In this document: positions 1,319 through 64,000 of the stretch, in pieces | Layout of the letters: every line of letters starts with the position of its first letter | Position numbering within the stretch: position 1 is the first letter of the stretch | Origin: Lytechinus pictus | Lineage: Eukaryota | NCBI RefSeq assembly: GCF_037042905.1 | Contig: NC_087251.1 | Coordinates: 43,774,001 to 43,838,000 of the forward strand | Direction of reading: 5' to 3' | Length of the DNA: 64,000 bases | Program-made: the position numbers and the translations under genes | The notes under the pieces: generated by a model | Seen by the model: the letters and a program-made list of their open reading frames with translations, nothing else | Databases searched by the model: none | Told to the model about the DNA's origin: nothing

Positions 1319-1712
1319 AGAGAAATGCCAGTAGTTGCAGTAAACACTGATTTCATGAGAAAGTCTGTAAAACCAGGCTTAATTGTCAGTATATCATCGA
1401 GGATCTAGATCTGGTACAGTTACATAAACTAAACTTTGTGAAATCTTGAAATCTACGCTGGAAAATGTTCACGCTGAAGATCACTAACACAGATAAGCGC
1501 ACGTGGGACAGTGTATTATTATTGCTTTGAATGTCGGCCCGACGCTTGACCCAAATCCTGTGCTTATTTGCTGATTTCTCAGCAATCACACAATTTCTTC
1601 CAGAATCCATTGGCACATATGTTTTATTTATACAAACAGACACTTTGGTGGTCATTTCATTGGATTCTGTACGAACTCATTTTGATATCGTTACCACAAC
1701 TGGAATTTACCT
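1319..1712. mobile_element. Kolobok-like non-autonomous DNA transposon
   Basis: TTAA on both sides (1315-1318, 1713-1716); imperfect TIR AGAGAAATGCCAGT / ACTGGAATTTACCT. Confidence 0.65.
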
Positions 1713-1748
1713 TTAACACGATAGATGTGTCTTCCTTTGTATTTTCAG

Positions 1749-1909
1749 GCAAGTCGGGTCTTCGTGATGAAGAAGAAGAAACAACGTTGGTAGACATTGA
1801 GAAGGACGATGAGGAGGATGAGGCGATGGAAGATGAAGAAGGAGAAGAAGCAGCCGGAGCATGGAATACAGTCAGCATGGATGATAGGGAAGAAATCAAT
1901 CAAGAGGAG
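1749..1909 (+). CDS. SART1: SART1 exon (acidic, [10 protein letters not shown]...EINQEE)
   Basis: ttttcag acceptor, gag|gtaaaa donor; phase 0 fits the next exon. Confidence 0.85.
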
Positions 1910-10243: not shown

Positions 10244-11198
10244 TTTTTTGTCTCACCTGCATAGCAGAGTGAGACTATAGGCGCCGCTTTTCTGACGGCG
10301 GCGGCGGCGTCAACACCAAATCTTAACCTGAGGTTAAGTTTTTGAAATGACAGCATAACTTAGAAAGTATATGGACCTAGTTCATGAAACTTGGCCATAA
10401 GGTTAATCAAGTATTACTGAACATCCTGCCTGAGTTTCATGTCACATGACCAAGGTCAAAGGTCATTTAGGGTCAATGAACTTAGACCATGTTGGGGGAA
10501 TCAACATCAAAATCTTAACCTAAGGTTAAGTTTTTGAAATGTCATCATAACTTAGAAAATATATGGACCTAGTTCATGAAACTTATACATAAGGTTAATC
10601 AAGTATCACTGAACATCCTGCATGAGTTTCACGTCACATGACCAAGGTCAAAGGTCATTTAGGGTCAATGAACTTTGGCCGAATTGGGGGTATCTGTTGA
10701 ATTACCATCATAACTTTGAAAGTTTATGGATCTGATTCATGAAACGTGGACATAATAGTAATCAAGTATTACTGAACATCCTGTGCAAGTTTCAGGTCAC
10801 ATGATCAAGGTCAAAGGTCATTTAGGGTCAATGAACTTTGGCCAAATTGGGGTATTTGTTGAATTACAGCCATAAATTTGAAAGTGTGTTGGTCTAGTTC
10901 ATAAAACTTGGACATAATAGTAATCAAGTATCACTGAACATCCTGTGCGAGTTTCAGGTCACATGATCAAGGTCAAAGGTCATGTAAGGTCAAAGAACTT
11001 TGGCCACGTTGGGGGTATTTGTTGAATTGCTATCATATCTCTATAAGTGTATTGGTCTAGTTCATAAAACGTGGAAATAAGAGTAACCAAGTATCACTGA
11101 ACATCTTGTGCGAGTTATAGTAGTTTTCAAAATCAGCACTGCTGCTATATTGAATCGCGTGATGCAGGTGAGACGGCCAGAGGCATTCCACTTGTTTT
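10244..11198 (+). mobile_element. HINE-like element, complete copy
   Basis: T-rich flanks; subterminal IR GTCTCACCTGCAT (10250) / ATGCAGGTGAGAC (11162); 5' hairpin partner GTGAGAC; (GGC)n microsatellite; 160-190-bp tandem units at 10453, 10645, 10808 and 10970. Confidence 0.85.
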
Positions 11199-17800: not shown

Positions 17801-18708
17801 AGCAACACACATGATTATACTGAAGCTTTGAGGTTTTGACCATTCTCATTTATTCACTCACTAAAATTTGGTCCCGTTTTGAAATAATAGATATCATATT
17901 CCCTACAAATGAAATATATTATTATGATGGTAGATGAAAAAAAAGTAAAAATATACATCCCTATTTAAAATTATCAGCAAAATATACAACGGAAAGCATC
18001 ATGGATGCTAAACATAACCATTATAAAGCAAGTAAAAAAATATGGTGAAAGGAATTCAAGAAGTAGATATTTCAATACAATTTTGATACAAATTGTATCC
18101 CGCAGTTGCAATCCTGCAGACAAAATTAGCACTATCTGCCTGCTCCTAATGACCTTGTAATTAACATACCGTATTCGAAATGCAAATAATTGTTGCCATC
18201 TCTAATATTTGTGTCAATTAATTCTTGGTAGCTAGACAATCAATATACATGTAGGTCCATATATTACACAGATATATTGCAAACATAAGAAGAAATAGAC
18301 CATTCACATCCAATATTAAGTACGAACTTACGCAATGAAATAAATAGTTATATTCAGTATGTACAGACACCTCTTTGAGGCATACAATTTACATTAAAAT
18401 AAGGGCATAAATATTATACCCTTTATCTCGCTTAATGTGCAAATATAGTTGGAATTCAACAACCTTACTTGACCCTAACAATTCTCTTCAATCCATACTG
18501 GCACATGAAATTCATGATTCCTTACTACTGATGTAAAACCAATCTCTTGTTCTTTTTTTTCATTCTTTTGCCATCTTCCTTCCTTAATATTTTGGGCTCA
18601 AAATGAGCTACATCGGTAAAACCAACAAATCGATAATAGAAATACGCAATTTTTTCAACTGGTACAGTTTACTTACTAGAGTCTCCAAAAAAATAATAAA
18701 TGTAAAGA

Positions 18709-19067
18709 TTAAATACAGGTTCTGCGAAATAACCTCTGAACGATTCTTGTATGGTAGTTCCCCAAGAAATCTTGCTTGGTCAGCCAAAGAGAAGTATCTT
18801 CTACATCTCCTGCCGAGAGGACTATGTACTTCTCCCCCTCTTTCAACTTCCTGCACTCTGTGTCCGCTGGTAGAACCAGGGTGTTTAACTCGACATTGCT
18901 GTTGTGAGGTAGGATATGGTGGACGACGTCGAGCTCGATGGTGGTGTGGGTGTCGTTGGTGTCGATATGCCGGGCGATGAAACTGAAGGTGAAATCCCTG
19001 CCGCAATCATCAGATGCTTCCTTCCACAAACTTCCACCTTCAAGACCCATACAGACCAATGGAATGG
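18709..19067 (-). CDS. Gene A exon 12 (NTR/netrin-C-like domain, stop)
   Basis: CTTTCAG acceptor; C..C..FTFSFIA...LVLPADTECRKLKEGEKYIVL...FLGNYHTRIVQRLF pattern resembles the NTR module. Confidence 0.8.
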
Positions 19068-22000
19068 CTGAAAGAAAAAGAAAATCACTTTGAAATCATG
19101 GTTTTCGTACTATGGTACTAGGCCCATTTATTTTGTTACCACAAGTCAAGTCATGATTTTACAGAAAAACAGTGCACCCGTATGAAGCCAAAAAGGGTTC
19201 TGTGTTATCATTTGAATTTCTTATCCAGATATGTGTATATATATATCAATAGCTAGAGTTATTATCTTTAGAATAGTAGCTGCTGGCTTCATCGTTCGTC
19301 CATTTTCTTTCTTCATATGGTACTACTACAATTTATAATGAATATGACATAAACCATTCATCGTTACATAAATGTAACATAGAACTATGAATCTACAATA
19401 AGAGGATGATTTTGATTGATTTGGTATGAAGACAAAAAAAAACTTTTTTTAAATAGCTAAACCAAGAAATACATGCAAACTTGCTTCATTCGTCCTTCCA
19501 TAAGTCAAATATTTGCCTAAGTCAAAGCCATTTTAAGACCAGGTAGATTATTACATACCTCTTCTAATTCAAATAGCTCCCAAATTGAACAGATTTCTGT
19601 GTACCAACAAGGTTTGCCTTCAGAAAAGTTACCTGCATCACTCAAAGATTACTTACCTTCACAGTATCCTGTTGTAAAGTTTGGTTGAAGTCCTCGCTTA
19701 CAGCAGTTACCGTTGTCCAACTTCTGAAGTTTTTGTTTGGTACGGGGTTTTCTGGTAGGTCCCGATGCGCAGCACATCTCTTTGTTGAAGTCAAACGCTA
19801 ATGCACCACAGCACTGGTTTCTACCTCTGCGGATGCGTCGCACATAACCTTGGCAACAGATCTTGGATGTTGGGTCATAGGCAGTATTCTGACAGCATTG
19901 TCCATTGGGGATATCAGTCAGGGAACCATTACAACAAGTCTGTTCATCTGGAGAGTAGAAGTCTTCACCACAAAGAAAGAAGACCTTGTCATCTCTACAC
20001 TGGGCATCGCTCAGAGAATAGACCATGCCAGCACAGCATCCCTGGGTTAGCGGGAAGAACTCAGTATCATTACAAAGCTGATGACCAAAGTCAGAATGGT
20101 ACGGGTTGCACCCTAGCGATTGATGCATGATCTGACCAGATGGACAGCACTGGGATTCCTCACCATATATCTTCTGATGGATGGCACCGTTGCAACAGAT
20201 TTCTTGAGAGGGCGCTTTGATCACCCGGTTGCTGCAGCACTCCCTGAGGCCATTGTGGAGGAGGCCATCGCAGCAGGTCTGGTTGGTCGCGTTGTAGGAC
20301 CCCTCGATGCAGAAAGCATTGGTAGCAGATAGTGTATGATCATCCAGGAGCTGGATGATGATATTCTGACCTCCTGTTGAGAAGCACTGGTGAGTTGAAG
20401 GGTAGAAGGCAGCACGGTTACAACACTCCTTCCCTTCTGCCTGTGTATGGAGGGTTCCGTTACAGCATAAGTGACTCCCATTAGCCTGGTATGGCTTATT
20501 CCCACAGCAAACACTGTTCTCTTCTGCTTCGTATCTATAAAAAAGTATGATAAGGAACAAACATGACAACAATAATGAATCAATCTGGACAACAGAAGGT
20601 GAGAACAGGAGGAAGAACTAGACATTAACCCTACCCTATCTTCAAACCATTGTATGCTTGGGAAGTGGGGATGAGGTATTTTATCAAGGATTGATTCTAC
20701 AAAACTATTGAACTTCGACTGTCCCTGGGACATAAATATCAAATTTGTATACCTATCAAACACTACATATTTCTAATTCAGGAGGGTGTTTCAAAAGACT
20801 TGTTTTATCTAACAGTTACCATAGTACCAGTCATAGTAACAGTCAGATATCCGTGCTATTGGCCAACATCAAGGGAGGTCGCCAGATGACAAACATTTAT
20901 TAAATGCTCTCCAGATATCTGAAGAAACTGTAAAAGAAGAACCTTAATTCTCACCTGAACCCATCACAGCACAGTTCCGTTGTCGGGTCGTAGAGGTCGG
21001 ATCCGCAGCACTGTCCCTGTCCAGCTGGGTGTCTCACACCATTACACACAATCTCATCCAGTCTGTGAACCACTCCATCGGCCATCGAGCATTCCGTCTC
21101 CTCCTCCGCCTTCCTACTAAGCTTCCCACCGCAGCATGTGATGTTCAGTACAGATCGGTCATAGGCCTGATCCAGGCAGCAAGCGGGATCTTCCATTCCA
21201 CTGGTAGGGGTGAGGGAACCCATACAGCAACTGTGAGTTGAGGGATTAAAACCAATTGATCCACAGCACTGGCCTTCTTTCAATGATGTCCCTGGAATGA
21301 AAAGTGATTTTTGTAGCTGTTGGTATGCAATCTTCAAGTAGAGCATATGAAGGACTCTGACAATAAATATAAGAAAACACGACTGAAAGGGGGCACTAAT
21401 TACACTCACATGCACAATTCTAAGTTTCACAAACAGATGAAAAGAAGATCTAAAGAACATCACACTTTAGTGAGGTTATAATTTTGGATGATACTCCACT
21501 AAAATAAAATATTAATGAACCTTCACCATTTTTTTTTTTAAAGGCACTGAATAAAATCTACTCCTCTTTACTCACCTGGTGTTTGATATTGGATGCCATG
21601 GCAACAGGTTTGTCCTCGACCAATAAGATGTTCTCCACAGCATTCCTGATCTCTCTTATCATAGACCTCTCTCATCCTGCCACATAGTCTGATGTGAGGG
21701 CCAGCTTCTTGAGGAACAAGATCTCTGCCGTTAACGCAGTCGTATCGGCTGTTATCGTACACCTCTGATCCACACAATCTGTGCCAGATCATAGAAAATA
21801 TTTTAAAAATAATTCAAATCAATTAAAACCACGTACAGCTGGACTATTTACTCTATCATGACAAAGCCACAGTGACAGAACCAAATCCAGGCAAAAAAAA
21901 GCTATTGATTGATTGATTGCAGTTATTCTTTTTTTTTTCATTCCAAAATTCAACAAAAGTTACAATGTAAGGTAAAACACAAATATAATATACAGAAATG

Positions 22001-25000
22001 AAAAAAAAGGGAACCCACTGGAATGCAAAGCTTGTTAGTATGGGTTCCCTGCAATAAATAGTAAATTTAAGTATATATTTGATCAATGAAATTCAAATCG
22101 TAAATTGAAAGGGTTTGTACCATGAAAAAGAATACTAATGGGGTCTAGCTTTTTATGCCTACTCACCATGTGACAATTAACAAAAAATATAATATCATAC
22201 CCCTGGTGAATAAAACAAACCTGAATTCAGGAGTGTGTGAACAGACAATCACTTAGACAAGACAGGACAAAAACTAAAAACAAAAAAAAGACACACACAC
22301 AAACATGATGGAGAGCCGCTTCGCACCGAAGTTGTGCTAAACTTGTGCTTAACCTCAATCGATCAGCTTGATGAAACACCCACCAGAAATAGGGAAATGC
22401 TGGAACAAACTTGCTACACTTCTTGGTTCCTCTTTTATCCAAGTACAAGTTTTATTTTATCAATGCCTATCAATATGATGTGGGGGCTTCATGGTCTAGT
22501 GGTTACGACTCTCGTCTTTCAATCAAAGGGACGTGGGTTCAAATCCCAGCCATGGCGTGTTTTCCTTCAGCAAGAAATTTACCCATATTGTGCTGCACTC
22601 GACCAAGGTGAGATGAATGGGTATCCGGTAGGATTTATTCCTTGAATGCTTTAGCGCCTAAACGGCGGCTCAGCTACAGTTGGGGTAATAATATGATACT
22701 AAGTATCAAGCGCAGTAGAGTATATGCAATTATAATAGCTGTGCTATATGAATGGAACATATTATTATTATCCTTTATTTTCTAATTGCCGATCTTCTCT
22801 TAAAAATAAACAATGCGTACCTTGCGTTGTTGTGGGGGATGCCATCCTTTATGGTTCCATAGAAACAGGTGGATGTGACGGAATGGTAGGCCTGTAGTCC
22901 ACAGCACTCTAGAGGGAGCCCTTCATCATTTACCCTAGGCTGAATACTGTACTCGCAACACTGCTGAGTGACGAGCCTGTAGATACGTGATCCGCAGCAG
23001 CCATGTGTGTCGGTGTCATAGATCTGCCCCCCACAGAGGTCCTTGCCTTCAGCTCTGGGAATGATCTCGCCATTATCGGAACAAAACTGGAGGTAAATGT
23101 GGAAATGGAGGAAATCATTACTGAAAAGTGCTGAAATACTACAATTTTAGATACAATTCCATACATTCATGAACGGTGAAGTGTATTTTTTCAAAATAGT
23201 TACAACTTTAGCAAGGCAAATGGGATGCATGCTGATACTAAACTCCTGAAAAAAAAATAGAATGTTGATTATTATTGTGAATCTTTCTCTGTGTGAGTAC
23301 CTCTGCATTATTTCTCCCCAATCATGCTCTTTCTATTCCAATCATACTTTTTTTTCATGCTATTGCCTGAGAATACAAATTATGCGAGAAACCGTGCGTT
23401 CTCAACAAAGTTGGCCTACAGATAGCAGTCAAACCTTCTTCAGCAGCCACTGGTATAGAATGGACAACCTGTCTATAATGACTACAAATTTGGTTTCCCT
23501 TGCATATAATTCCCCATTGATATATATTGTATTAAAGGAACCTTTCTATAAAGACCACCTGTTCATAAATATCACTATTTTCCCTCGTATCCCGTGGGTG
23601 CCTTTAGACGGGTTATACAAAGTATAATGGTTTTCACATACCTCCCTGTTGCTGTCATAAGTCTGGCGTATGTTATTATGTTCCCGATCTAACGGAACAC
23701 AGACTTTATCGTGGGTTCTGTTTTCGGGAATGTCAACCACTTCTTGCATTGCGTCGTCGCAAAGTTGCTTTCCTTGGACAATCATCTCTGGTCCGCAGCA
23801 TTCTCCCTCACCGCGTGGGACTGGATGTACCTTCTGATGTTCTCCGGCTGGGATGATATAAAATGAGATTAAAGGTAAATCTTGGTATCATACTCATAAT
23901 CATATGTTGTTATTTAACGTGTCCTGAGCAAGATGTGGAATGCCAACCTATACATCGTTCATTGCTCGTGTTTGTTGAAGACCAGAGCAAATTGTTCTTT
24001 GTAGATTTGTTTAGAATACTGTTTTATAACCAACTTGGTACCAAATTGATGGTCATCATCAACATATTCATCACATCATCATCATCATGATCATCGTTAC
24101 CACCGTCAACACCACCACCATCATCATCATCCTCCTACTCTTCCCCCTACCTCCTCCTCATCTTCACCATATCACTATTATTGCCACAATCATCAACATC
24201 ATCACCATCACCATCATCATCATCATCATCAACATTATCATCACCACCACCACCACCACCATCTCCTCCACCAACACCATCATCACCAGAGGTGTTTAAA
24301 CACTCCCTCCATCCATCACACTAACTGCCTAAAGCTCACCTTTGCAGCATGTTTCCGACGTCGGATCAGTAAATACAACCTCGGTCTGCGAGAGTAAGCA
24401 GCACTCCCCCTCTGTACTGTTGAAGACCCTCCAATACTGGGACTCCCAAGATTCCCTGCAGCAGGTCTGTGTCTCTGGATCGTACTGAAGATCCATCTCC
24501 TGGCCAGAGGTGGTACAGATTTCCGCATTTGAGGCTATTTTATCCACAACGATGCTTCCATCGATACAGAATTGCTCTTTGTATCTGTAGGATTCTACAG
24601 GGGAAACAAAGAGGCATGACATGCAATTTTTGTTATCATAAGCTATTAAAACTAGCCAATCTTTCATGTACATATATATTTATCCCAACTCAAATATCAG
24701 TTTGCCGACAGCATTCAAGGGTTTCCTATCGATTCGTTCCAAAATACCTCATTTGCGTGTGGCAAACAAAGATTCATTCTTTCTTTATTCAATGATCCAT
24801 ACTACTTAATACATATGAATCTTGAATTTCCAGGACTATGTAATTTGTGATGACATTTCCTGATTAAAAATAATAAGAACATGAGAATATGATTGATAGT
24901 GTATTCTGAGCTATTACTAATCACTATATTATTTTCTGTTAAAGCAACTATCATTCAGATAAAAAAGGACTTACTTGAACCACAGCAGCGAGAATCATCA

Positions 25001-28000
25001 AATTTGGATGACAGGTGCCCACCACAGCAGATGAGGAGTGTGCTGGCATACCTAGACCCATCACACAGTCCCCATAGGTCGTTTTGACCTTTGACCTCCG
25101 GGTACTCTGTTCTAATGCCTCCAACGCACGACGACTGGGTAGGGTCGTAGATCTCTCTTCCATACCTATAACCACAGCAAGAGAATGGAGATTTCCGCAG
25201 GAGAGCCGGATCATTACAGCAAGGCTCATCGTTCGGGTTGATGAGATTACCATGGCAACATTCCGTCTTTCCATCTTGGATGTCGTGCAGTCTGCCCCCA
25301 CAATCCACTTGCCTGGTCGGGTCATACGGTTGGTTGCCATAGCAACTTGCAGGGCCGTGACCTCGTGGATGAGCTTCACCCTGTGGTACAGATTCAAACA
25401 AATCAATGTTACAAATGGACAGTTTATTACAAGATGAAGGATGGTACAGGTGAATATGCCTGATTACGTGAAATCTTTCCGTGCATTCTTTTGGTGCATT
25501 TCAGGCCAAAACGGAATAATAATCTTTATTTTGGTACAGTTCTTTTTATATATTTTTATGGAATAAAGACAAAATTCGATGAGCCCGTCGGGGGGATTTT
25601 ACATTGTTAACCCCCTAATGGTGGCTGCACGATAGCGAGCCGTCTGTGTACGTGGGTAAATTTACAAAAAATGTTTAAAAACTCCTCGAAGCAGATGGCT
25701 GCCAGCTGTCTAATGTTCGCATTACCTCATCTGCATGGTCTTAAAAAATGACTTGGGCGATTATTTGGCTGATGGAAGGTTGACTTCAGCTGAGCCTACT
25801 GTATTTGACTGTTGCTACATGAAAAAAGCCCTAAAACAATACTACAAATCAGATCCGATCCTCATGCATGCACCTACCTGGCAGCATATGTGGGTAGTCT
25901 TATTAATCCAGCCAGCCCCGCAACACTCAGTCTCTCGAAGCAGCACACCATACTTTCCAACGACGTGGGATTCCATGCCCCCTGTTGGTAGAGGGCAGCA
26001 GATCTCGGAGGAGGCATCGTAAGTACGTGACCCACAGCACGAGCCGACTCCGTCAGCGACGAGGGGAGAATAGCGATCTTGACTACAGCATGTTTGCCTT
26101 TCCTTGTCATAGTACGACGTGCCGCAACATTCATGTCCTTTGGCGACGAAGAATAAAAAAAGGGAGTGATAAAATCAAATTAGAATCTGACATTTGAATA
26201 CCATCCATCCCATTTTCCCATCAGTTTCACAATTAACGAAAATATCAAATGGTGGTACTTTTGAATTTTATGTTCACAGTTTAAATGTAAGTAGATGTAT
26301 CTTTTGCCAGTCACTGTTTCAGAAGCAATGAAGTAATGATAATGATAACTATTATCATGTGCAACATTGTTTACATAAAAAAGATATTGCAAGAGCACTT
26401 ACATTGAAGAAAAAAAAAGTTAGTAGCTATTAAAGTTGCCTTGGTCAGTTATGTGATACGTACTTTGGATTGTTGCTTTGATTTCTCAAGAATTGATTTT
26501 GAGAAGTTGGTTTGTTATTCCAGTCTGCTAACAAACAAGTACAAAATATTAATTTTCGTAAAGGTGCAGGGTTGACTGCAGTTGCTATAGGAGATTGATG
26601 AAAGAATTGTCTACTGTCCATGTCGGAGAGTCCTGTGTGCAAGTGAAGTGCAAAAAGAATGGAATTGTCAGCGACACTACCTTGTTGCTTTGGATGTTGG
26701 AGTTGAGATGTTTGCTGATCACCGCAGCACTCATGGGTGGTGGAATTGATGATTTCGTTGTTGCAACAGACAGCATCTTCTCTTAACTCCATCTTTTTGT
26801 TGCCGCAACATTGCCAGGTGTTGTCCATAGGGTACAGATCATCTCCACCTAACAGAGATTTAAACAAAAAAATCAACTTAGCATTCTTTGAAATTAAAAA
26901 TTTAATTAAAAAATTTCTAATCTCAAATAATGTTTACTTGATAAGTGTGAACATAGTATAACTAGCTAACTTTGCTGGTTTAACGGAGTATAATGTTTAA
27001 AATGACTTTGGTGCAACTGTTGCTATTATTTCCTACGTAATCTATCAATTTATTGAATACATACATACACTCAGTATCTACATTGTAAACAATCAATATC
27101 TTACTTTATTTTTGACAAATAAAATGACAGAGGGGGGGGGGGGCAAAGATTGGATTGAAGAGACAGTATTCTGATGTACCCCCACATTCCTCATAATTAT
27201 GCCTAATTATGGTAATTAAATCATATTAACAATAAATAATTGTTAAATGGACACTTCTTTTTCAACAAGCTAAGAATATGAAGTCAATGTACTTACAGCA
27301 TCTGAATTCCATACCAAGTGCCACAGGAGTGCTATGCACACGACCCCCACAACATGTCTGAAGTGTGGGTATGTATGTATACTTCCCACATTCGGCAGAG
27401 TAAATGGCAGTAACTGGAAATACAAAAAAAATAATAAAATGGGTTAATTTTTTAATGAAAAACAGGAGAATGTTAAAGAAGAAAGTAAAACCAGGAATAA
27501 AAAAAAGGGGAGGGGGCTTGCCAGTCTACAAGTGAAAAATAAAAAATGTCATATTAATCACAGATGCAGTAATGGTTGAATTCCACTCAAAAGAGAGAGT
27601 GTACGTACAAGGATCAACAATTTAGCAATCACAAATTAGAACGCAAGTCAACGATTTTCTTCATAATAATTAAGAAAGTCTAAGCTGCAATCTAGCAGTA
27701 GCAGCGCCTTTAACTTTGCGCTAGGCCGGCCTATTCTGCACTTAACTCTTAAGGCCCAGAGCCCCGGTCGGCTTCGAAAATTAGAGTGACTGGGAGAATA
27801 TACAAGGCAAAGTCAGAAATTTGAAAAATACAACAATGAACAAGCTTGCCAAATCTAATCATTGTCTAATAATTGCAAGTTTTGCTGAAATTTACCCGAA
27901 ACAGTGCCTGTCCTCTCGTCTCACTCAGCTCCACTCATTCACGTTTAGCATCACATGTGGATATTTCGGGAGCTAACTTCAACAATTCCAGCAACAATTA

Positions 28001-31000
28001 CACCCAATCATATGCACTAAATGTAACGTTAGATCTCAATCTAAGTTGAAAGCACAGATTGACTGGCTGGCCGCCCAACAAGATATTGCATGCATGCTTC
28101 CATGAACTTTACAGGTCATCGCTCAGTGCAGTCGTGGCTAGTCTTAATTGAGTTAGACTTTTTGTCAATCGTAAGGAATCGTGATTTGAAAAAAAGCTTC
28201 AAGTATATCTATCATTTGTGTTTTTGAATTGATTATACATTTTTATATATAAATCTATGTGTGAGAATATATTTTAATTCGCTTTCTCTTGCCTTCTTAT
28301 AAAATACCGTGCCTATCACATTACTATACAGAACTTGTGTCTAAAATCAAAGACTATTAAAACTTGATTACGGGGATTCCCCGATATGATCGACGCGCGC
28401 TACCGTGTACAACATGGTTCTTCGGTTGATTTTTCCTCCTCGCCGAACCCATTTTATTTAGTTATATTATTTCAGCTCGATTTAAAAAAGGGATTACACT
28501 TTAAATATAGCATTATAATGTTCATAGTACATGGAATTCTTTGTGATGGTGAGCAACATCATCAACAATATCACTGAACATTGTCTATGACTATGAGCCT
28601 GAGACAAGTCCAGATCCAGCGAACTTGCAAGAGAACCAGCCATGCCCATTGGATTTTATGTGGAAACATCGATTCGGGAAATCAAAGGAAAACATGGAAT
28701 ACACAATCAGACGTCAAGAAACGGCACCAGTACAAGGTAAGCACACATATTGCGTGTACTTCTGTCGTCTTTATCAAGATGGAATCCTTGGTTAGGGCAT
28801 AGAGCTGTAGCTCCATGGTTAGGGTAGCCATGCAGAATTTCGGATGGTCCGCTGCACAGCTAGCGCAAGCTTGCTTCCGGTCTATACAGACACTGTGTAC
28901 CGAGCGATGACGAGATTGGGGGGAATTCCCGTATTCCACGAGGATAGAAAACTGGTTTGGCGAAGTGTCAAATTGAAATAAAGAAGCTGCTGGCTGTCCG
29001 TGACCACTCAGAGCAGTCAGCTCCCGAATTGATTTAAATTCCTCGAGCTTATGTATTATAAACATTGATATTACATGTAGGCCCATTACCAAACTATGTA
29101 AATTGGATGTCTGTAATATGGAATGATATAGACTTTACAAATTTATGTAACCATATTTAAAAGCACCTATATCAAAAATCGCGGCTCGTCTGACGTGACA
29201 GTTTTGGTTCACATTGTATTTTCTTTTATTCTGTGAAAAAAATCAAGTTGTAGCCGTCAGAAGCACTCTGGCACAGAACATGCCTATATAAGAATTAAAT
29301 CAGCTACAAAAAAATACTGAAGAATTCGACATTATTGTAGTGCAGATTAATTTTTTAAAGAAACCTTTTCATAGCTATAGGTATTCTGATTTATGCTGCT
29401 ATTCTAAGAAATGCACAAGTGAACCAAACACATTCACCATTCATTTTCATTGTAGACTGGTAGTCTAGTTCCTGCATTTTTAAAGAAATGATAATATTAA
29501 AACAGAAAAATTAAGTACAATTCAAGTTCTTCAGTTCTATTTCGTATCTTTAAAAAGAAGGTAGACTCAAGAAATTGGCTGCATTAAGAACACTATGATA
29601 GAGCAAGGAGTAGAGTAATAGAATGTGGGAAAGTGGAGTGAAAAAGTGAGTGTAGAACGGATCAGAGAGAGAAAGAGAGGGGGGGGGGGATTCACTGCTT
29701 ATATGCCTATATACCTGGTTTAACTGATAAATATGCACACACTACCAGCCACCCATATATCAATTTTTGTAGAGTCAATCGCATCGTGAAATCATTCAAT
29801 GAGACTGTTGAGTTGTGAAGTAGAAATCTTGAAGTTCAGTAAAATATTCCTCGTAATATTTTGAAAAGAGTGCAAGTCGTATTAAATTCGAGAGCTCAAT
29901 TTCAAATAGCGTCCGCACGGAGAGCCGACAAGGCGTTTACTGAGCTGCGCTGGAGCTCACTTGTATTTATCAACTTTTGAGGGAATGGGAATTCCCCATT
30001 TCTTCACGGGGATGGCCTATAGTCGCAAAATTGTGACGTCACGTCACGATCATAATGCTCGTACTCTCATCATCGCTGTTGAATATTTATGAGATGAAAG
30101 GATGACGTACATGTATATCAGGGGCCGCGGAACGGTTTTCAAAGTTGGGGGGGCTGACCATGCAAAAAAATCACAATCATATGGTAATTTTTACGTTTTT
30201 GTACGTGGTTTTGGAAAAAAGTGGGGGGCTGAAGCCCCAAACCCCCACCCCCCAGCCCCCCGCTTCCACGGCCCCTGTATATTCAATCAGACTTGCGTAC
30301 TAAAACTCTCAGTTTCAATAATAATCTGATTAAAAGTACACTGAAGTTATATGCAGCCTCGATTTAATGTACTAGACGAATCAAGTGATATTTATTTCCT
30401 TTAATGTATTTGGAGCGAGAGGAGGGGGATGGGGTGTTGCGTGAAAAGGGGGGGGGGGTGATGCGTGGTGTTGCGAGAACGAGAATCCCAGGCCCAATTG
30501 GTTTAAAATTAAATGCAGCCATCATGAAGAGGTCTTATCCCTAAATATATCTTCTCGTTTTGAATACGTTATCGTAGAAGTTGTCTGCCTGTATGGCTTA
30601 AGCTAAGGTTCCATGACATTTGCTCCGGCGACAATTGCTCCGATGGAAAATCTCGTGCTCGTTTAGCCAAACATAAAACCTAACCTCCAACACTGAATAA
30701 TCCTTATCTTTATATTTTTCTGAATCTGAACCAAAATTTTATTACAATCCTAATTCTAACCCTATGCCCTCTGACATATTAAGACCAGAGCAAATGTCGC
30801 AGGAGAGGCGTAAATAATATTTTGAGGGTCGCGCGGTGTGGAGGAAAAGCGTATAGCAGTGATGATAATGAAGGGGAAAAAATCTCGAAGGGCCAGTATC
30901 TTGTCTAAGTGTCTGTAATTGACAAAGAATCCCAAAGAATAGATCAGATAGATAGAATTCACTGCTTGTATACCTGGTTCAACTGATAAATATGCACACA

Positions 31001-34000
31001 CCACCAGCCACCCATATATCAATTTTTGTAGAGTCAATCGCATCGTGAAATCATTCACCGAGACTGCAGAGTTGAGAAGTAGAATCTTGAAGTTCAGTAT
31101 AATAATATTCCTCGTAATATTTTGAAAAGAGTGCAAGTCAAATAAAATTCGAGAGCTCTATTTCGAAGCGTGCACACGGAGAGCCGACAAGGCGTTTACT
31201 GAGCTGCGCTGGTAGCTCACTTGTATTTATAAACTTTTGAGGGAAATCCCCAATGTCAATCGGCTATTAATATGTCTTCATGGGGATGGTCGCAAAATTG
31301 TGACGTCGCGATAATAATGCTGATACTTTCATCGTCGCTGTTGAATATTTATGAGATGAAAGGATGACGTATATTTATCAGATTCGCCTACTAAAACTCT
31401 CAGTTTCAATAATAATCTAATTGAAAGTACACTGAAAGTAAATGCAGCCTCGTACCTGACGAATCAAGTGATATTTATTTCCTTTTCTGCATGTGAAGAG
31501 AGAACGAGAGGGGAGCGGCGTGAAAGAGGGGGGGGGGGGTGCGAGAATCCCCTTTGCTTTTCATGCAGCCACGAGGTCTAATCCCTTAATTAAATTGCCT
31601 TTCTAGTTTTGAATACGTCATCTTTAAAATACGGTATACAAGTTAACTGCCTTTGTGGCCTATAAAATTTAAAACCTCCTTGCTATAACCAGCTGAACCG
31701 GCCCACTCGTTCGGTTGGATGGGGGGAGGCACTCTCCCCGGCACTCTCCACATTCATCGCGCCCAGAATAAGTCCCGAAATGGCTTTGCTCTTTGCCGCA
31801 TCCATATAATACAATTATTTTAAGAATATATTTATTTTGGGTGTGTGCGTTTTAACAAGCCTTCTCCTGGCTTTTTAGTACACTCCTGTTTCCCATTCAT
31901 GATTTGGCAATAATACTTTGATTATCACTTTCGTCTGTATTTATTCATGTTTCAATGATATGTTTTAATTTTTATTGTCTCTTTGTTTGTACATGATCAT
32001 GATATCAACTTGTATTTTTAATGAATTGGAAATAAATGCTGAATTGCTGAATTGATAATTATATTGGTCGCTATTAAAAGTTCGGTTGCTAGTGAATTGA
32101 TGGTAACTGTCGTACTGCGGAGTTCATGCAATGTGGAATTTTGTAATTTTACGAAGTGGAATGATCTGAACAAAACAAAACAAGTTTTGTATTTGTCGAC
32201 GTCTTATGTCCCTCGCAAATTCATACTTTCATCTGTTGTAAAAACGATATCGTTTGCTCTGTGCGTAGAATCCATTAATTACCCGCGACCGGGTAACATG
32301 CTATTGGGACGAAAACATACTCTGTGAAGTTACATCAATTTGTGTGCGGTGAGCGCTCATCGAGCATCGGGCTTGGGCAATGGTATTTCATTGACAGCGG
32401 GTATTGCGCAATGTCAGCTGTGACGTCGTGGTGTAAACAAACCCAACACGTGCGTTTTCTTTCATGAATACTGTCAGTACACACTACACACTCGCGTATA
32501 ACGAAATTAATGATCGTGGAAGAATGGCGACATTTTCCTTTTTTTCAATACCAAAGAAGCAGGGCTGCTTTCCCCCGTTTCTTTTGATCATTTGCATATC
32601 ATTAATGGATTAAAGGAATATCATGAATGAGTGACAATTGTTGTTGCACGATCAATTATCATGGTCCGATCCAACTCGGTGGGATTTATTTAAAAATCGA
32701 AATGAAAAAACCTCAGACTGGTTCATAATTTTCGTGGAAAAAAGCTTTGAATGTTTATATCAATAGGCTTCGTAGGGGAAAATTGGAGTCGGATGGGATA
32801 GTGACACAGCCCCCCCCCCCCCTTCCCCCCCACCCCCGACACAATTGCCATGGGTAAACTGCCGATTCTTTTATTGCCAACTCGTTCACTCACCGCATGG
32901 TACACCTTCATTTAATCTATTGCCATTACGTCCATCAACCTTTCGTCTACAAACCATTTGGTCCAATAATTATAATCACTTCGTCTAATCATCAGTTCGT
33001 CTATGACCATTTCGTCCCGTAACCAGTTGGTCTAATGCCCATTTTCTTTTCATTCATGTCGCCCGATTAACACTTAGGCCTGTATACTCAAATAAGACCA
33101 AATGGTATATGGACTAAATGGCTATTGGACCAACAGGTTATTAGACGAAATGGCAATTGGACCATGTGGATAGTGGACGAACTAATGATACACCAAATGA
33201 TAGTAGACGAGTTGGTAATAAGACGAATTGGCATTAGACCAATGAAAAAAAAACCTTGCCATGTAGATACACAATAAGGGTATAGGCCTACATGTTTGAA
33301 AGTGGTCCCCGATGTGCCCTGATGCTGACTCGCTGAGCAATAATTGTTCACCTGGCGTGTACTATACAGCGATCTATAACGCTCTTGTTTGAAATTAAAA
33401 AAAATCCCCTTGAAAATATTGCAGCATCATTATACGTCGAGATCTCATTTTTATGCAATACAAAGGAATGAAGATCTCCTGTCATCAACGAGTGACGACA
33501 GTGATATCGATTATTCATTAGTTTGTGTCTTGATGAACAGATCCCAACACCATCACTTCTTGTAAAGGATAACAATTCACATACAACTAACAATCTAGGC
33601 TGGTGGTAGGGGCGGATCCAGGATTTTCCAAAAAAAAGGGGAGGGGGGCACATTTTCCAGAGGAAAATTTTGACAAGCCCCCCCCCCCAAAAAAAAAAAA
33701 TATATATATTTTAAACCTAAAATACTGACATTTCGTCCACGAAAAATAATTGACAAGCACAAAAAAATGTCTTCACTTTCAAGGGGGGTACACTTCTATT
33801 TTAATGGCATTTTTAAATTACAAATATCCACTGTGCCTCTCAAAGGGGGGGGGGGCGGGCACGGGCCGGCTTTGCTCCCCCCCCCCCCCCCCATGGATCC
33901 GCCAGTGGGTGGTGGTATACATAATCCATCTCACAATATGTAACATATATGTTTCCAAGCATTGATTACCTTCTGGGTTAAGACTAGGATGTTATTGAAA

Positions 34001-34923
34001 TGAAGAAATTATTATTTTGTTATTTCATTAAATTCATTTCAATGAATTAAACTGTAATCATGTGTATCATCTAAACCACCTGTAACCATCTATGCTGTAA
34101 CCGTGCTTCGTCCACTCATGTATGATAAACTATACGTGTCATATAATGACCAATGAAGCATATCTTTGTCGCACTTCGCATTCATCGACATGAACTTTTC
34201 CAGTAGTTTACCATGACTCATCACGGCTAGGGGATTTTTTTTAAAATCTAGTGTTGATAAAACATTTGGTTCTCAGTTGTAAAATTTCGTTTTCGTTAGG
34301 GTATATCGTAATTTCCGACACAACGGTCAGTTCGATCGGTGTGGCTCATTCAGTAAACCAATCCCGCAATCCAGTTCTTGGACGCAGGTTCTCGACTCGC
34401 CTACAACGATTGTTCAAAGATTTTTTAAATAAAAAATTGAGGCAAGACCGAGAATTGTAATATGATTTCAATGCTTTCAAAACAGCCTATTATAACCATT
34501 CCCACTTCCCTCTCGCTTCGGGTGCACAAGTAGTATACTGGCGGCAAAAAATCGCGGCGGGGGGGGGGGGGGTGGTAACATTGACAACTTACCAACAGGT
34601 CCAATATAAGATAATAATGACTGCAGTCAAGGACCACTACCCCTGAAATACCTTCAAAGGTAAATCTAACCCGGGGGCGGGGGGGGGGGGGGGTCTGTTG
34701 ACTAAATGCCGTGATTGTATACTCGTAACAAGAAATGGATAAAGCATAAATCAACTTAAACATTCTTATATGAACCATAGTTGTTTCCTGCTATTGCCGA
34801 AAAATTATTTTAGCTTCATTAGAATTAATAAGGGATAAAACAACTGTGTATTTACTCACCAGACGATATACCTGTAAAAGCCAATAGTATTAAGGACACG
34901 GCGGTAGATACATGAAACGTCAT
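18709..34923 (-). CDS. Gene A: secreted galaxin-like di-cysteine repeat protein with C-terminal NTR-like domain, 1172 aa; complement(join(18709..19067,19657..20534,20955..21291,21576..21778,22821..23086,23642..23847,24340..24594,24975..25380,25878..26137,26681..26848,27297..27413,34860..34923))
   Basis: Twelve exons, all GT-AG, give a continuous 3519-nt frame. It encodes the N-terminal hydrophobic leader MTFHVSTAVSLILLAFTGISS, about 45 CC pairs in CCG-x(2-3)-Y/F-D/N-P-x(3-4)-CC repeats, many N-x-S/T sequons and an NTR-like terminal exon. Confidence 0.88.
19657..20534 (-). CDS. Gene A exon 11 (large galaxin-repeat exon)
   Basis: TTTATAG acceptor, G|GTAAGT donor; within the 307-aa ORF. Confidence 0.92.
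20955..21291 (-). CDS. Gene A exon 10
   Basis: TTCCAG acceptor, AG|GTGAGA donor. Confidence 0.9.
21576..21778 (-). CDS. Gene A exon 9
   Basis: CACAG acceptor, G|GTGAGT donor. Confidence 0.9.
22482..22771 (+). mobile_element. tRNA-derived SINE in intron 8 of gene A
   Basis: A box TGGTCTAGTGG, B box GGTTCAAATCC, body shared with 53397-53716, (ATT)n tail. Confidence 0.85.
22821..23086 (-). CDS. Gene A exon 8 (FCSDNG...HGCCGSRIY...)
   Basis: CTCCAG acceptor, AG|GTACGC donor. Confidence 0.88.
23642..23847 (-). CDS. Gene A exon 7
   Basis: CCCAG acceptor, GAG|GTATGT donor. Confidence 0.85.
24052..24287. repeat. (CAT/CAC)n microsatellite
   Basis: Degenerate trinucleotide array in intron 6 of gene A. 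Confidence 0.9.
24340..24594 (-). CDS. Gene A exon 6
   Basis: TGTAG acceptor, G|GTGAGC donor; within ORF 24329..24673. Confidence 0.9.
24975..25380 (-). CDS. Gene A exon 5
   Basis: CACAG acceptor, A|GTAAGT donor; within ORF 24955..25401. Confidence 0.9.
25878..26137 (-). CDS. Gene A exon 4
   Basis: AAG acceptor, CAG|GTAGGT donor; HECCGTSYYDKERQTCC... (this frame is absent from the ORF track). Confidence 0.88.
26681..26848 (-). CDS. Gene A exon 3
   Basis: CTGTTAG acceptor, G|GTAGTG donor; WQCC/AVCC/HECC. Confidence 0.85.
27297..27413 (-). CDS. Gene A exon 2 (TAIYSAECGKYTYIPTLQTCCGG...)
   Basis: TTTCCAG acceptor, T|GTAAGT donor. Confidence 0.88.
29693..31662. repeat. Direct duplication of about 0.7 kb (29693-30600 and 30960-31662)
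   Basis: Long co-linear identical blocks such as AACTGATAAATATGCACACA and GGAGAGCCGACAAGGCGTTTACTGAGCTGCGCTGG. Confidence 0.9.
30119..30277. mobile_element. Short hAT-like MITE
   Basis: CAGGGGCCGCGGAA / TTCCACGGCCCCTG TIRs; absent from the duplicate copy at about 31370. Confidence 0.75.
32392..32441. promoter_or_regulatory. Candidate intronic enhancer motif cluster
   Basis: TGACAG, perfect C/EBP palindrome ATTGCGCAAT 32403-32412, CAGCTG, TGACGTC and Fox-type GTAAACAAA within 50 bp. Confidence 0.35.
32853..33245. mobile_element. Foldback MITE, same family as 12014-12413
   Basis: Shared blocks AACCAGTTGGTCTAAT and AGACCAAATGGTATATGGACTAAATGGCTATTGGACCAAC. Confidence 0.75.
33607..33907. mobile_element. 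hAT-like MITE
   Basis: TAGGGGCGGATCCAGG / CATGGATCCGCCAGTG ends; near 8-bp TSD GCTGGTGG/GGTGGTGG; relatives at about 49038-49260 and 49400-49557. Confidence 0.7.
34860..34923 (-). CDS. Gene A exon 1 (signal peptide)
   Basis: ATG at 34923, 21-aa hydrophobic leader, G|GTGAGT donor; phase 1 matches the exon at 27413. Confidence 0.75.
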
Positions 34924-35221
34924 GTTTATTCTCACTGATAGGAATTGAATACAATTTTCTTGTTTTCCTTGTGATGCCACCAAGATTAATAAATTCAACT
35001 TGCGGATGAAACCTCGGTAATTATCTCACTTCCAATCTAAACAGTTCAAAAGTTTGGTCACTTCATATAATCCCACACATTTTCTCGATTTTTGTAGCAC
35101 TCTAAAAACACGTCCTTCCACCTTCACGTCTAAATGTTCTTCTGTCAGTCTGTCGATTCACCCTTCATCAAAACTCCATGTCGACCTGCTGAAATTAGTA
35201 CCCAAGTTCTAAAAATAAAAA

Positions 35222-35505
35222 GGGGTTTCCTTGAGGTTTAGCTATATCATTTACGCATGCTCATTTTCATTGCAATATTTCGAATTGAACTCTTCCGTCC
35301 ACCCAAAAAGTTTGCAGTGGCGGTATGTTGATAATGGGGAAATCCCCGTTCCGAAATTAGCTCACGCGCGTGCACACGACGGATTGTTTGGGAGAGTTGT
35401 GTGTAACGACATCTCAGGCGAGCAATATAATCGCACAACGTATTGCACAATATTCATTATCAAAAGTCTCCGTGTTTTCAACTTGCACTAATCTTTATGA
35501 CGTGA
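35222..35505 (-). promoter_or_regulatory. Candidate proximal regulatory region of gene A (kB, C/EBP and ATF-like motifs)
   Basis: GGGGTTTCC 35222, GGGGAAATCCCC 35336-35347, ATTGCACAAT 35442-35451 and TGACGTG near 35498, all 300-580 bp upstream of the ATG; TSS not determined. Confidence 0.45.
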
Positions 35506-37424
35506 GGTATGCATTTTCACCAATATTGATTTTATATCAAAGGCATTGACAAATATTTTCTCGGGCATAAAATCTTCTTTTTTTTTCACTTTTGAATATG
35601 GATATCTACATTCAATGCCAATGTGTGAAGAAAGATAAATATTATTTGTTAACTAAAGTTATTATTAATGTTTATCTAATAAATATTAATACAAACCACA
35701 ACTGGTATTATACCTGTTATAACTTGTGCTACATAGTTTATTGAAGTGTCACAAGACATTGCTTAAAAAGAAATATATTATTTTGTGTCACCATCATAAT
35801 AATTAAAAAGTGTGCAGATGGTGGGTTAACATTGATAGACGATCACTGCTAATAGCACTGAAAATTTCTTTCTGGAAATGCTCATGAGTAATAGTTTGTT
35901 TTGTGGTTAGGTGCAGGCATTGCATGAAAATTATCTACATGCTCATCTTTGCTTGTTTTACTGTCATAAATTTGATTTCAAATAAATAGATCTTAAAAAG
36001 CCTATCTCAAATTTTGGGTAAATGACACCAAAAGTGATGGTAACTATATAGTCCAGTTTTTTCCTTGAATTTGTTTGTCCTAAAACTGCTTTCATGTCGA
36101 TAATAATAACCCTAAACGTGTTCTTCAGGATGTGATTATCATTTTGCATCAACTGCATCAATTTCGTCGAGATCCTGACCAAAATAAAAATGTATTTTTT
36201 GTTCATTAAGTTTTCAAACCATTATTATCAAGTTCACGTATATAATGGGCTGAGAATCTTGGATATGATCTTTGTCGTCTGTAGCTTACTAATATGCTAT
36301 CACTAAATCAAAGTGTTCAAATAATTTTTAAAATATAATACGTAGGGCCTACATATAACATATTATGTATATATGATAAATTATAAAAAAATGAGGGCTC
36401 CTATAGAATAGATATGGCACTCTTGCAACGTTAAAATTTTAAATGATACTCCTATAATGCACATTTTTGAACCGTCATCAATGTACATGTAGGTCCATGA
36501 TCAAATCTCCTTTTTGGTGATGTTTTTTTTTATATTTCCGGTGTTTATTTCCTGTGAAAATTTATTTCAATTCAGTAAATTGATAATAAACGAGAATTTA
36601 AATTTCTCGTTGTCTCAACAATAAATATGATTCTCATTTCCGCTATATAGGGAAAGTGTGTGGTATAATAAAGGGAGGGGGCATTGGTTTCGGTTAAGAA
36701 TTATTATGAAATACATTTCTGCACGGATATTCATAGATGACCAACCCTTTACTATCGATGAGATTGTTAAAATTGTGGGTGGTCGAAACTCGAAAGTGAT
36801 AATCTGGCTGGATTTCTTGAAACCTTTACACTCCTACAGTTTCATTACCCACTGTAAAAACGCTGTTTAAAAAATGTTTAAGCTCGTTGTTAGAGCCTGT
36901 CACTCTAGCAAGTATTGTTTTAAGTTTCATACAAGTTTTTGTTTTAATCAATTTTTTTCAGATTAAACAATATTAAGTTTAAAGAATTGTTTAAAAGTTT
37001 AACAATTTTAAGTTTAAACAATCGTTTAAAAGTTTAAACAAGTTGTTAGAGTGACGAGCTTAAACCACATGCTTAAAATTTCAATCAGTTCTCTCTCTCA
37101 ATTGAACCCACCCCAACCCCGCCCCTCTCCCTTTCTGCCTGTTCTTTCCCCAGTCCCGATAACTTGTATTATACCCGTCGAAACGCTGTTCTCTATTTTC
37201 CATCACTATATATACCATAATAAAGAGATACCGAATACCAAGACTCACTGGTGTACGGGAGGGCTTGGGGAACTTTGCCCCCAAAACATTCATGACCCCC
37301 CCCCAAAAAAAAAAAAAAAAAAAAAACGCAAGAAGAAAATGTATGAAAGAAATAAGAAAGAAAGGGGGAAAGGTGAAATATTATATCATTTTCTGAATAA
37401 TTATGTAAAAAAATATGAAAATAA

Positions 37425-38382
37425 TTTTTTGTCTCACCTGCACAGCAGAGTGAGACTATAGGCGCCGCTTTTCCGACGGCGGCAGCGGCGTCAACATCAA
37501 ATCTTAACCGAAGGTTAAGTTTTTGAAATGACAGCATAACTTTGAAACCTGAATATAAGGTTAATCAAGTATTACTGAACATTCTGCCTCGGTTTCAGGT
37601 CACATGACCAAGGTCAAAGGTCATTTAGGGTCAATGAACTTAGACCATGTTGGAGGAGTCAATATCGAAATCTTAACCTAAGGTTAAGTTTTTTGAAATG
37701 TCATCATAACTTAGAAAGTATATGAACCTAGTTCATGGACCTTTGCCATAAGGGTATTCATTTACTGAACATCCTGCCTGAGTTCCAAGGTCAAAGGTCA
37801 TTAAGGGCCATTGAACTTGTTGGGGGTATTTGTTGAATTACCATCATAACTTTGAAAGTTTGGTCTGAGTAGCAGCAGGTTGAACCTGCTACAACTCAAA
37901 CCATTGCTACTCAAGCCATATTCAGCTCATCTCATCTGGTTTACAGTCCTTTTCAGGACTTCACTCACTTTCAAGAAAGAATACCTCTAATTTTCTCTTT
38001 TCATCTCGTCTTTCCATTTCAATCTTTCTGCCTGTATTTCCTTCCCTTCTTCATATTACACATGGTAAACCATAAACTTTTTCCACGTTATAAACTCCAC
38101 CATGCAAACCTACAAAGATCAGCTATTAAATTGCTGTCATAACTTTCAAAGTTTATGAATTGTGGACATAGTAGGGGTAATCAAGTATCACTGACAAGTC
38201 TTAGGTCACATGATCAAGGCCATATGTCATTTAGGGTCAATGAACGTATTATTATATCACTATAGGAATTGTATTTTTTGTGAATAATTATTTTATAGTA
38301 GTTTTCAAAGTCAGCACTGCTGCTATATTGAATTTTGAATCGCGTAATGCAGGTAAGACTGCCTGAGGCGCTCCACTTGTTT
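37425..38382 (+). mobile_element. HINE-like element, diverged, with an internal ~270-bp insertion (about 37862-38128)
   Basis: GTCTCACCTGCA start, (GGC)n, GGTCAAAGGTCA units, ATGCAGGTAAGAC...CCACTTGTTT end. Confidence 0.8.
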
Positions 38383-53924: not shown

Positions 53925-54763
53925 CGTTTTATGAACTAGACCAATACACTTATAGAGATATGATGGCAATTCAACAAATACCCCCAACGTGGCCAAAGTT
54001 CTTTGACCTTACATGACCTTTGACCTTGATCATGTGACCTGAAACTCGCACAGGATGTTCAGTGATACTTGATTACTCTTATGTCCAAGTTTTATGAACT
54101 AGACCAACACACTTTCAAATTTATGGCTGTAATTCAACAAATACCCCAATTTGGCCAAAGTTCATTGACCCTAAATGACCTTTGACCTTGATCATGTGAC
54201 CTGAAACTTGCACAGGATGTTCAGTAATACTTGATTACTATTATGTCCAAGTTTCATGAATCAGATCCATAAACTTTCAAAGTTATGATGGTAATTCAAC
54301 AGATACCCCCAATTCGGCCAAAGTTCATTGACCCTAAATGACCTTTGACCTTGGTCATGTGACGTGAAACTCATGCAGGATGTTCAGTGATACTTGATTA
54401 ACCTTATGTATAAGTTTCATGAACTAGGTCTATATATTTTCTAAGTTATGATGACATTTCAAAAACTTAACCTTAGGTTCAGATTTTGATGTTGATTCCC
54501 CCAACATGGTCTAAGTTCATTGACCCTAAATGACCTTTGACCTTGGTCATGTGACATGAAACTCAGGCAGGATGTTCAGTAATACTTGATTAACCTTATG
54601 GCCAAGTTTCATGAACTAGGTCCATATACTTTCTAAGTTATGCTGTCATTTCAAAAACTTAACCTCAGGTTAAGATTTGGTGTTGACGCCGCCGCCGCCG
54701 CCGCCGTCGCCGTCGGAAAAGCGGCGCCTACAGTCTCACTCTGCTATGCAGGTGAGACAAAAA
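53925..54763 (-). mobile_element. HINE-like element, 3'-truncated, nearly identical to 10244-11070
   Basis: Reverse complement matches the 10.2-kb copy unit by unit; longer (GGC)n. Confidence 0.88.
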
Positions 54764-61907: not shown

Positions 61908-62296
61908 TCATTCTAAGATACTGCTGAGTTTCCGGACTAACCGCCTGTTGTAAGGCATGATGACGTCTCCTCTTGTGATTTGGAGTGTGGATTCAGTCAG
62001 CCCACCCTCTGCGTCCATGAAAACGACAATCTTTTGACCACGTCTGAAAGATTGAGCACTGCATCCGCGAAGACGTGGTATCGTCATCTGGAGCATACCT
62101 TCGCTATCTTCAAGCGTGGCCGGTAGAACCCCACGAAGAGGATCAACTGATTCTATAGAGTAGGACATGGAATTGTCTTGGCTGTCGATGTCTGAAATGA
62201 TCGCGATGAAAACGCGTTCTTTGGGTCGAAGTATGTCGGTACAAGTTGACGAGATTCGGTCACTCCTGTGTTTCAAGTTGCAATGGCATTGAGGGT
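61908..62296 (-). CDS. Gene B terminal exon (NTR-like domain)
   Basis: Within ORF 61908..62381; phase 1 acceptor; TGA at 61910-61908. Confidence 0.85.
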
Positions 62297-63753: not shown

Positions 63754-64000
63754 CTGTGAATCGGATACAAAGGAATAATTTATTTATCATCAGTGACATC
63801 GAGACCCATGTACGATAAAACGCAGTTCTATTAATTGAATAAATAAATGCATCACTTTCCAAAAATATAAACCTTGATTAAGTACTCTCCCAAAAAGCAT
63901 ACATGCTGTCATGGGGAGAAATTTGAAATGTTGAAACTATCACACACAGAACTCAGATGGTAAAAAAAAATATTTTTATACTTGTAAGACGGGTTCCAGA

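Follow-up and report, generated by a model that had tools for sequence, protein, structure and literature searches.

Do the Rel/NF-kB (kB) consensus sites gathered within and ahead of a galaxin-repeat gene of the sea urchin Lytechinus pictus mark promoters that are switched on by infection or injury? The question was raised by a preliminary description of 64,000 nucleotides of contig NC_087251.1 (assembly GCF_037042905.1, positions 43,774,001 to 43,838,000), the stretch referred to here as the window. Five kB sites in or near the first intron of this gene, LOC129264370 (gene A), are real, are clustered beyond chance and, for four of them, are promoter-proximal. Judging from the sequence, we consider it probable that Rel/NF-kB, together with C/EBP and ATF/CREB, drives an infection- or injury-induced, secreted, cysteine-rich matrix or barrier protein through a set of stacked promoters.

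Five clustered kB sites

Sites were called as string matches to the consensus GGGRNWYYCC, and one locus may hold several overlapping matches. All of the kB strings that the preliminary description had placed in the region are present at their coordinates:

28372..28382, no strand: kB site 1, palindromic over 11 bp, with a TATA-like box (28355) on one side and the start of the opposite-strand contigs on the other
28920..28930, no strand: kB site 2, far from known starts, 184 nt inside the intron of the opposite-strand transcript
29987..29997, no strand: kB site 3, at −46 to −56 relative to the predicted start of exon 1b
31241..31251, no strand: kB site 4, at −41 to −51 relative to the predicted start of exon 1c
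35336..35347, no strand: kB site 5, ~175 nt upstream of where the exon 1a contig ends
35222..35230, no strand: near-consensus kB-like site, ~60 nt upstream of that same contig end

Two weaker sites had also been proposed. The one at 35222 is indeed a near match and immediately precedes an AT-rich, TATA-like run, whereas the one at 34230 does not match the consensus. The consensus occurs at seven loci in the whole window, five of them inside 28372-35347. The two outside matches (14728 and 51071), previously described as looser, both fit the strict consensus but hold only 2 and 1 overlapping matches, versus 3-4 in the cluster. All five cluster sites are symmetric, each with 3-4 overlapping matches. 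The sites at 29987 and 31241 were correctly recognized as related by duplication; they are a single site, copied within a duplicated promoter cassette, and four is therefore the fair count of independent sites.

Markov models of order 1, 3 and 5 trained on the window gave 0.36-0.49 expected kB loci per 7 kb, about twice the ~0.2 originally estimated, while the count of five set against that estimate stands. Five loci within any 7 kb of the window were reached in 7/900 order-3 simulations. The symmetric class (at least three overlapping matches), which was picked after the sites had been seen, has an expectation of 0.03 per 7 kb, and three such sites within 7 kb occurred in none of the 900 simulations. 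Among 2000 column-permuted motifs, one had at least four loci in the region, itself a near-synonym of the kB motif, and nine had five loci in any 7 kb. The enrichment over background that had been proposed as a check was thus found with both simulations and permuted motifs, and it is modest when four loci are counted. For four of the five sites, a seen or predicted start follows within 200 nt downstream (binomial P 6e-4, or 3e-3 once the duplicate is collapsed), with the 200-nt limit set post hoc and two of the four starts predicted only. This start-adjacent position strengthens a regulatory reading of the sites.

Sequencing contigs were used to examine copy number and transcription. Of 11 listed runs, four were compared, all of them in the form of contigs: runs X1-X3 from organism A, treated as RNA since their contigs stop at splice sites, and run X8, a DNA run from organism B. 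Contigs indicate presence, not level, and depth was not used to rank genes; uncovered stretches (exon 1a in runs X1 and X3, 27802-28353 in runs X1-X3) are no sign of silence. Organism B is a second species, and its changes in exon 2 are those found in the L. variegatus protein. In run X8 the five kB-bearing bins had depths of 46-81 (single-copy), versus 1,800-354,000 in repeat bins, and runs X1-X3 showed the same contrast, with no pile-up at the kB-bearing bins. The only match within the window to the 211-nt flanks of the kB sites was between the members of the cassette pair. Across these four runs the five sites lie in low-copy DNA, outside high-copy dispersed repeats. Their earlier description as Rel/NF-kB consensus sites is supported, and the part of the galaxin-repeat gene that holds them is non-repetitive. 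Elsewhere in the window, at 4539-4904, 10310-11116, 37499-37860 and 53926-54686, several copies of a dispersed element were seen, which has internal repeats of 163-192 nt.

First exons, an opposite-strand transcript and the product of gene A

Intron 1 of gene A also holds promoters, in two cassette copies with alternative first exons. On the minus strand, each cassette runs from cAMP response element (CRE) sites through the kB site, a TATA-type box and an initiator-like motif to a leader exon with a phase-1 donor; the names CRE, TATA-type and initiator-like and the spacing rules are those that we take to apply. The features of the gene are as follows:

18709..35164, minus strand: gene A, L. 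pictus LOC129264370, 12 coding exons in the model that begins with exon 1a
27297..27413, minus strand: exon 2, the common acceptor, whose phase 1 suits all three first exons
34860..35164, minus strand: first exon 1a, whose coding part (34923-34860) resembles a signal peptide and whose 5' end is at 35164 or slightly beyond
29715..30118, minus strand: core of cassette copy 1, with CRE half site 30103, full CRE 30034-30041, kB 29987-29997, GATA-type TATA variant from 29971, initiator-like A 29941, exon 1b ATG 29784 and donor after 29715
30974..31400, minus strand: core of cassette copy 2, with CRE half sites 31365 and 31301, kB 31241-31251, TATA box from 31231, initiator-like A 31200, exon 1c ATG 31043 and donor after 30974

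The coordinates given earlier for sites in intron 1 and upstream hold, but most of the sites are proximal promoter elements of alternative first exons, not intronic enhancers. In copy 1 the TATA variant begins at −30 from 29941, and the TATA box of copy 2 begins at −31 from the initiator A at 31200; on this TATA and initiator spacing, exon 1b is predicted to start at 29941 and exon 1c at 31200. For exon 1a, a start at about 35184 is predicted. The copies are identical at 366/401 positions and their kB sites at 10/11; the one change falls where the motif tolerates it, and indels flank the site. Homology of copy 2 extends to about 31640. A ~170-nt high-copy repeat (30119-30285) is inserted in copy 1 upstream of the CRE sites and is not found in copy 2. 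The alignment indicates that exons 1b and 1c arose by tandem duplication of the whole promoter-plus-exon cassette.

Database proteins and contigs document the first exons unevenly. Exon 1a is present in L. pictus isoform X2 and L. variegatus isoform X3, and a run X2 contig spans 34860-35164, the end of a 1954-nt record, at a depth of 12.5, the same as exon 2. L. pictus isoform X1 opens with the 23 residues of exon 1b (29784-29716, 23/23 matching). Exon 1c (31043-30975) encodes the exon 1b leader with one residue change, and its use was not seen in any listed L. pictus isoform. L. variegatus isoforms X1 and X2 both use the cassette leader and differ solely at residue 8, inside the exon, which points to two cassette copies in that species as well. 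The first methionine is internal in L. pictus isoform X3 and L. variegatus isoform X4, and further 5' ends of gene A are implied by these isoforms. Each of the three first exons has a hydrophobic leader in the same phase and can be joined to exon 2; the leaders are predicted to act as a signal peptide (hydropathy of the N-terminal core 2.5 for exon 1a and 1.9 for exon 1b, by hydropathy only). A scan of metagenome contigs for the cassette core pattern gave 0 matches.

Contigs of organism B cover the kB region at 80% or more, and two of them stack on the cassette. Among the 40 differences listed of 413, these two contigs share five relative to copy 2: three equal copy 1 and two, within 31294-31339, are unlike both L. 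pictus copies. This suggests gene conversion or parallel duplication of the cassette (concerted evolution).

Other regulatory motifs accompany the kB sites. The region holds 11 CRE half sites, versus 2.2 expected from the rest of the window, and 2 strong C/EBP sites, versus 0.3; these excesses owe partly to duplication and to higher CpG. The spacing of kB site, TATA box and initiator, with CRE and C/EBP sites, is the layout of inducible promoters. Individual sites outside the cassettes are:

35442..35451, no strand: C/EBP-type site upstream of exon 1a, by the consensus that we take for this motif
35498, no strand: CRE half site upstream of exon 1a
32403..32445 (wider 32380-32445), no strand: enhancer-like cluster with a perfect C/EBP palindrome at 32403 and a CRE half site at 32421

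The last of these also contains what we take, by eye, to be an E-box and a forkhead-like motif. It lies in single-copy DNA between promoters, is covered by an organism B contig, and is a candidate enhancer. The kB site at 28920..28930, 1 kb downstream of the exon 1b start, is possibly another. Within 18000-36000, the gene A body has a CpG observed/expected ratio of 0.40-0.60 and the stretch 28-36 kb one of 0.81-0.92, the pattern that a methylated body next to an unmethylated promoter zone would give; the ratio is high in the intergenic 40-47 kb too.

The kB site at 28372 does lie within a gene A intron, as had been stated, but at the start of a separate transcript on the opposite strand (transcript C):

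28386..28736, plus strand: first exon of gene C, contigs ending at a GT donor, with several short upstream open reading frames

Contigs of transcript C, present without mismatches in 3/3 organism-A runs (two studies), begin at 28386 (run X1), 28416 (run X2) and 28395 (run X3), 4-34 nt past kB site 1. All end at 28736, where the RNA-like contigs stop at a plus-strand GT donor and the DNA run continues. The TATA-like box at 28355 is 31 nt ahead of 28386. From another TATA, at 28298, an alternative start of transcript C is predicted at about 28328. Contigs carry neither strand nor true start, and the kB site may lie just before or just inside transcript C. With its strand taken from the donor, 28386..28736 is the first exon of a spliced opposite-strand transcript that overlaps gene A. 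Its run X2 record has 760 further letters beyond those shown on this stretch. Among plus-strand open frames no clear downstream coding exon was found, and Rfam gave no match in 26000-38000. No credible protein homologue was found for the two of three open frames searched: the frame from 28586 had no candidate, and the single match of the frame from 28587, a low-complexity repeat protein, was judged a chance one. Transcript C may run head to head across every promoter of gene A.

The gene A model equals XP_054758213.2 (L. pictus isoform X2) at 1172/1172 residues. The protein has 1172 residues, of which 118 are cysteines (10%), an isoelectric point (pI) of 5.2, a charge of about −52 and one basic patch (residues 993-1032). 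Galaxin-like repeats (PF24748) occupy nine stretches, at 326 bits versus a cut-off of 28 (Pfam, isoform X1). The last exon is NTR/C345C-like by language-model features (score 0.92), and the C-terminal tail is predicted to be such a domain; the tail has no NTR match in Pfam or among solved chains. A single-sequence fold of the tail reached a predicted local distance difference test (pLDDT) score of 36 only. Relatives of gene A are the L. variegatus orthologue LOC121418311, two Amphiura proteins, a Ciona galaxin and a clam protein. At 27393 and 35125 the sequence of run X2 departs from that of the window; the change at 27393 gives the residue of the older database protein version and is likely an allele.

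A second galaxin-repeat gene, gene B, lies at 61908-63779 on the minus strand (144 bits), with its 5' end beyond the window. Its last exon is TIMP/NTR/NtA-like (language-model features 0.93-0.95), and BLASTP gave no alignment between the tails of genes A and B. The two Amphiura relatives of gene A carry neighbouring accession numbers, which, among other grounds, suggests a tandem galaxin-repeat array there too. At the left window end, 1550-3578 (plus strand) contains acidic open frames resembling exons of another gene.

Competing explanations

In the explanation we favour, Rel/NF-kB would bind the kB sites, and several kB promoters would feed one gene body to yield an induced, secreted product. 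Duplication of the cassette may add inducible output or a choice of tissue and would leave the mature protein unchanged. The product would be a disulfide-rich scaffold, not a cationic antimicrobial peptide, and transcript C may be co-regulated with gene A. The larval Vibrio response of a sea urchin includes nf-kB, cebp and atf2 (PMC5457136), and in a brittle star NF-kB motifs are enriched at the starts of early wound-response genes (PMC11310086). Galaxins respond to bacteria in squid (PMC12773714) and mussel (PMC7772429); the mussel example is a gill galaxin whose expression changes after Vibrio and which correlates with a neighbouring long non-coding RNA (PMC7772429).

Several observations weigh against inducible control by NF-kB. 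Four kB loci within any 7 kb were reached in 40/900 order-3 simulations (4%), and the plain cluster statistic for four loci is modest for a genome-wide scan. The kB site is kept between the cassette copies but, by their alignment, not more faithfully than the sequence around it. The region shows no enrichment of IRF, GATA or Runx motifs, and exon 1b or 1c spliced to exon 2 was found in none of the 32 contig pieces listed (29,099 more exist). In a coral, immune challenge lowers the expression of a galaxin-like gene (PMC3723955).

The best placed of the alternatives, though unlikely, is that the sites function without activation by infection. A p50-type NF-kB homodimer or a Schnurri/HIVEP-type zinc finger would then use them for repression, or for developmental or tissue control of a structural matrix protein. 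Symmetric kB sites are preferred by p50 homodimers and bound also by HIVEP proteins, and all five sites are of this symmetric, multi-match class. The gene A protein is large and acidic, and one run, of unstated condition, contains exon 1a. Repression or developmental control fits poorly with the inducible-promoter layout, in which kB, TATA and initiator spacing is joined by CRE and C/EBP sites. A skeletal matrix role is the best-known one for galaxins (PMC12773714), which agrees with this alternative.

Distinctly unlikely, taken as a whole, is an NF-kB-operated sense/antisense switch at the locus of gene A and transcript C. NF-kB would activate the three stacked galaxin promoters from −45 to −175 and, at kB site 1, flanked by the TATA-like box and the start of transcript C, would block or tune that transcript and so free gene A from interference. 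If true, the switch would tie NF-kB directly to the galaxin family in a deuterostome, and would point to injury or microbe defence, not skeleton building, as the family's broad role.

We regard as improbable that the cluster reflects chance and duplication, with a G-run-rich, CpG-rich promoter region yielding kB-like palindromes of which one was copied. The 40 simulations that reached four loci agree with such an origin, as does a kB site no better conserved between cassette copies than its flanks. Against it stand the lack of any simulation with three symmetric sites in 7 kb (a class defined post hoc), the single permuted motif of 2000 that clusters here, and the position of the sites at transcript starts.

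Ranked after chance, and likewise improbable, is the idea that transcript C is the main NF-kB target and gene A a bystander or controlled through transcriptional interference. The best palindrome is at the start of transcript C, a second site is 184 nt into its intron, and its exon was found in 3/3 organism-A runs versus 2/3 for exon 2 of gene A (presence, not level). However, the three other kB sites face gene A promoters with the correct minus-strand TATA and initiator geometry. That dispersed transposons brought in the sites is very improbable and, for high-copy elements, largely refuted: high-copy repeats do occur in the region (bins at 30010, 30562, 31666, 32770, 33046 and 33598), but high copy number was seen at none of the kB bins, whether in the DNA run or in the three RNA-like ones, the kB flanks match only within the cassette pair, the repeat interrupting cassette copy 1 carries no kB site, and the transposon-consensus origin that the preliminary description had named as fatal to its proposal is contradicted by single-copy kB bins.

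Comparison with known systems

Galaxins have mostly been described as proteins of the coral skeleton, and a role related to bacteria has been shown in squid (PMC12773714). In searches that covered few subscription papers, no paper naming the gene A identifiers and no published study of an echinoderm galaxin were found; the galaxin papers that these searches gave were coral and mollusc work and reviews. Nothing specific was found on sea-urchin kB promoters, nor was a published L. pictus challenge transcriptome. The available parts of the PMC12616046 supplement have no galaxin entries. Those of the PMC11310086 supplement have no galaxin, IGFL or Carb_bind entries, and the Amphiura relatives may be in the rest.

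The squid peptides EsGal1 and EsGal2 (PMC12773714) resemble gene A in their di-cysteine repeats, of the same repeat family by name, and their expression is linked to bacteria-facing epithelia. They are, however, cationic (+5 to +21.5), antibacterial and built of at most 7 repeats, whereas gene A encodes 1172 residues with a predicted NTR-like tail. The analogy drawn earlier with EsGal1 as an antimicrobial protein is weak, given a charge of +21.5 for EsGal1 (PMC12773714) versus about −52, at pI 5.2, for gene A. The term "NF-kappaB" is absent from the main text of the EsGal paper, as far as that text was available (PMC12773714).

Closer regulatory parallels come from other genes. AS-IL1alpha (reviewed in PMC7916124) is an antisense RNA overlapping an immune gene, as is proposed for transcript C; it is induced and needed for sense transcription, while transcript C is known only by its existence and splice donor. 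The brittle-star wound cluster A2 (PMC11310086), also from an echinoderm, shares NF-kB motifs near the starts of early injury genes; it represents a genome-wide enrichment, and Amphiura has galaxin-repeat relatives of gene A. SpIL17-4a (PMC5457136), like gene A, is an echinoid gene in which alternative first exons (two) from distinct starts join a common second exon. It differs in encoding a cytokine and in having measured bacterial induction, and kB sites are not described in the available part of that paper.

Stable transgenesis is established in L. pictus (PMC11361634), and the gene A locus offers a compact, testable set of kB promoters in this species that could serve as an NF-kB reporter. 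Duplication of a promoter with its leader exon would also be a way of adding regulatory input to one gene body. Here the nearest counterpart is Drosophila Baramicin A (BaraA; PMC8423362), which, like gene A, has several NF-kB sites close upstream, encodes a secreted repeat-built protein, and has undergone a locus duplication that takes in the promoter. In BaraA the whole gene was duplicated and Toll dependence has been shown (PMC8423362), whereas in gene A only the promoter and leader exon were duplicated, with one gene body, and kB dependence is putative. Set beside these systems, the locus is a kB-marked, multi-promoter one with an antisense partner, whose putative regulation is of a kind already well known.

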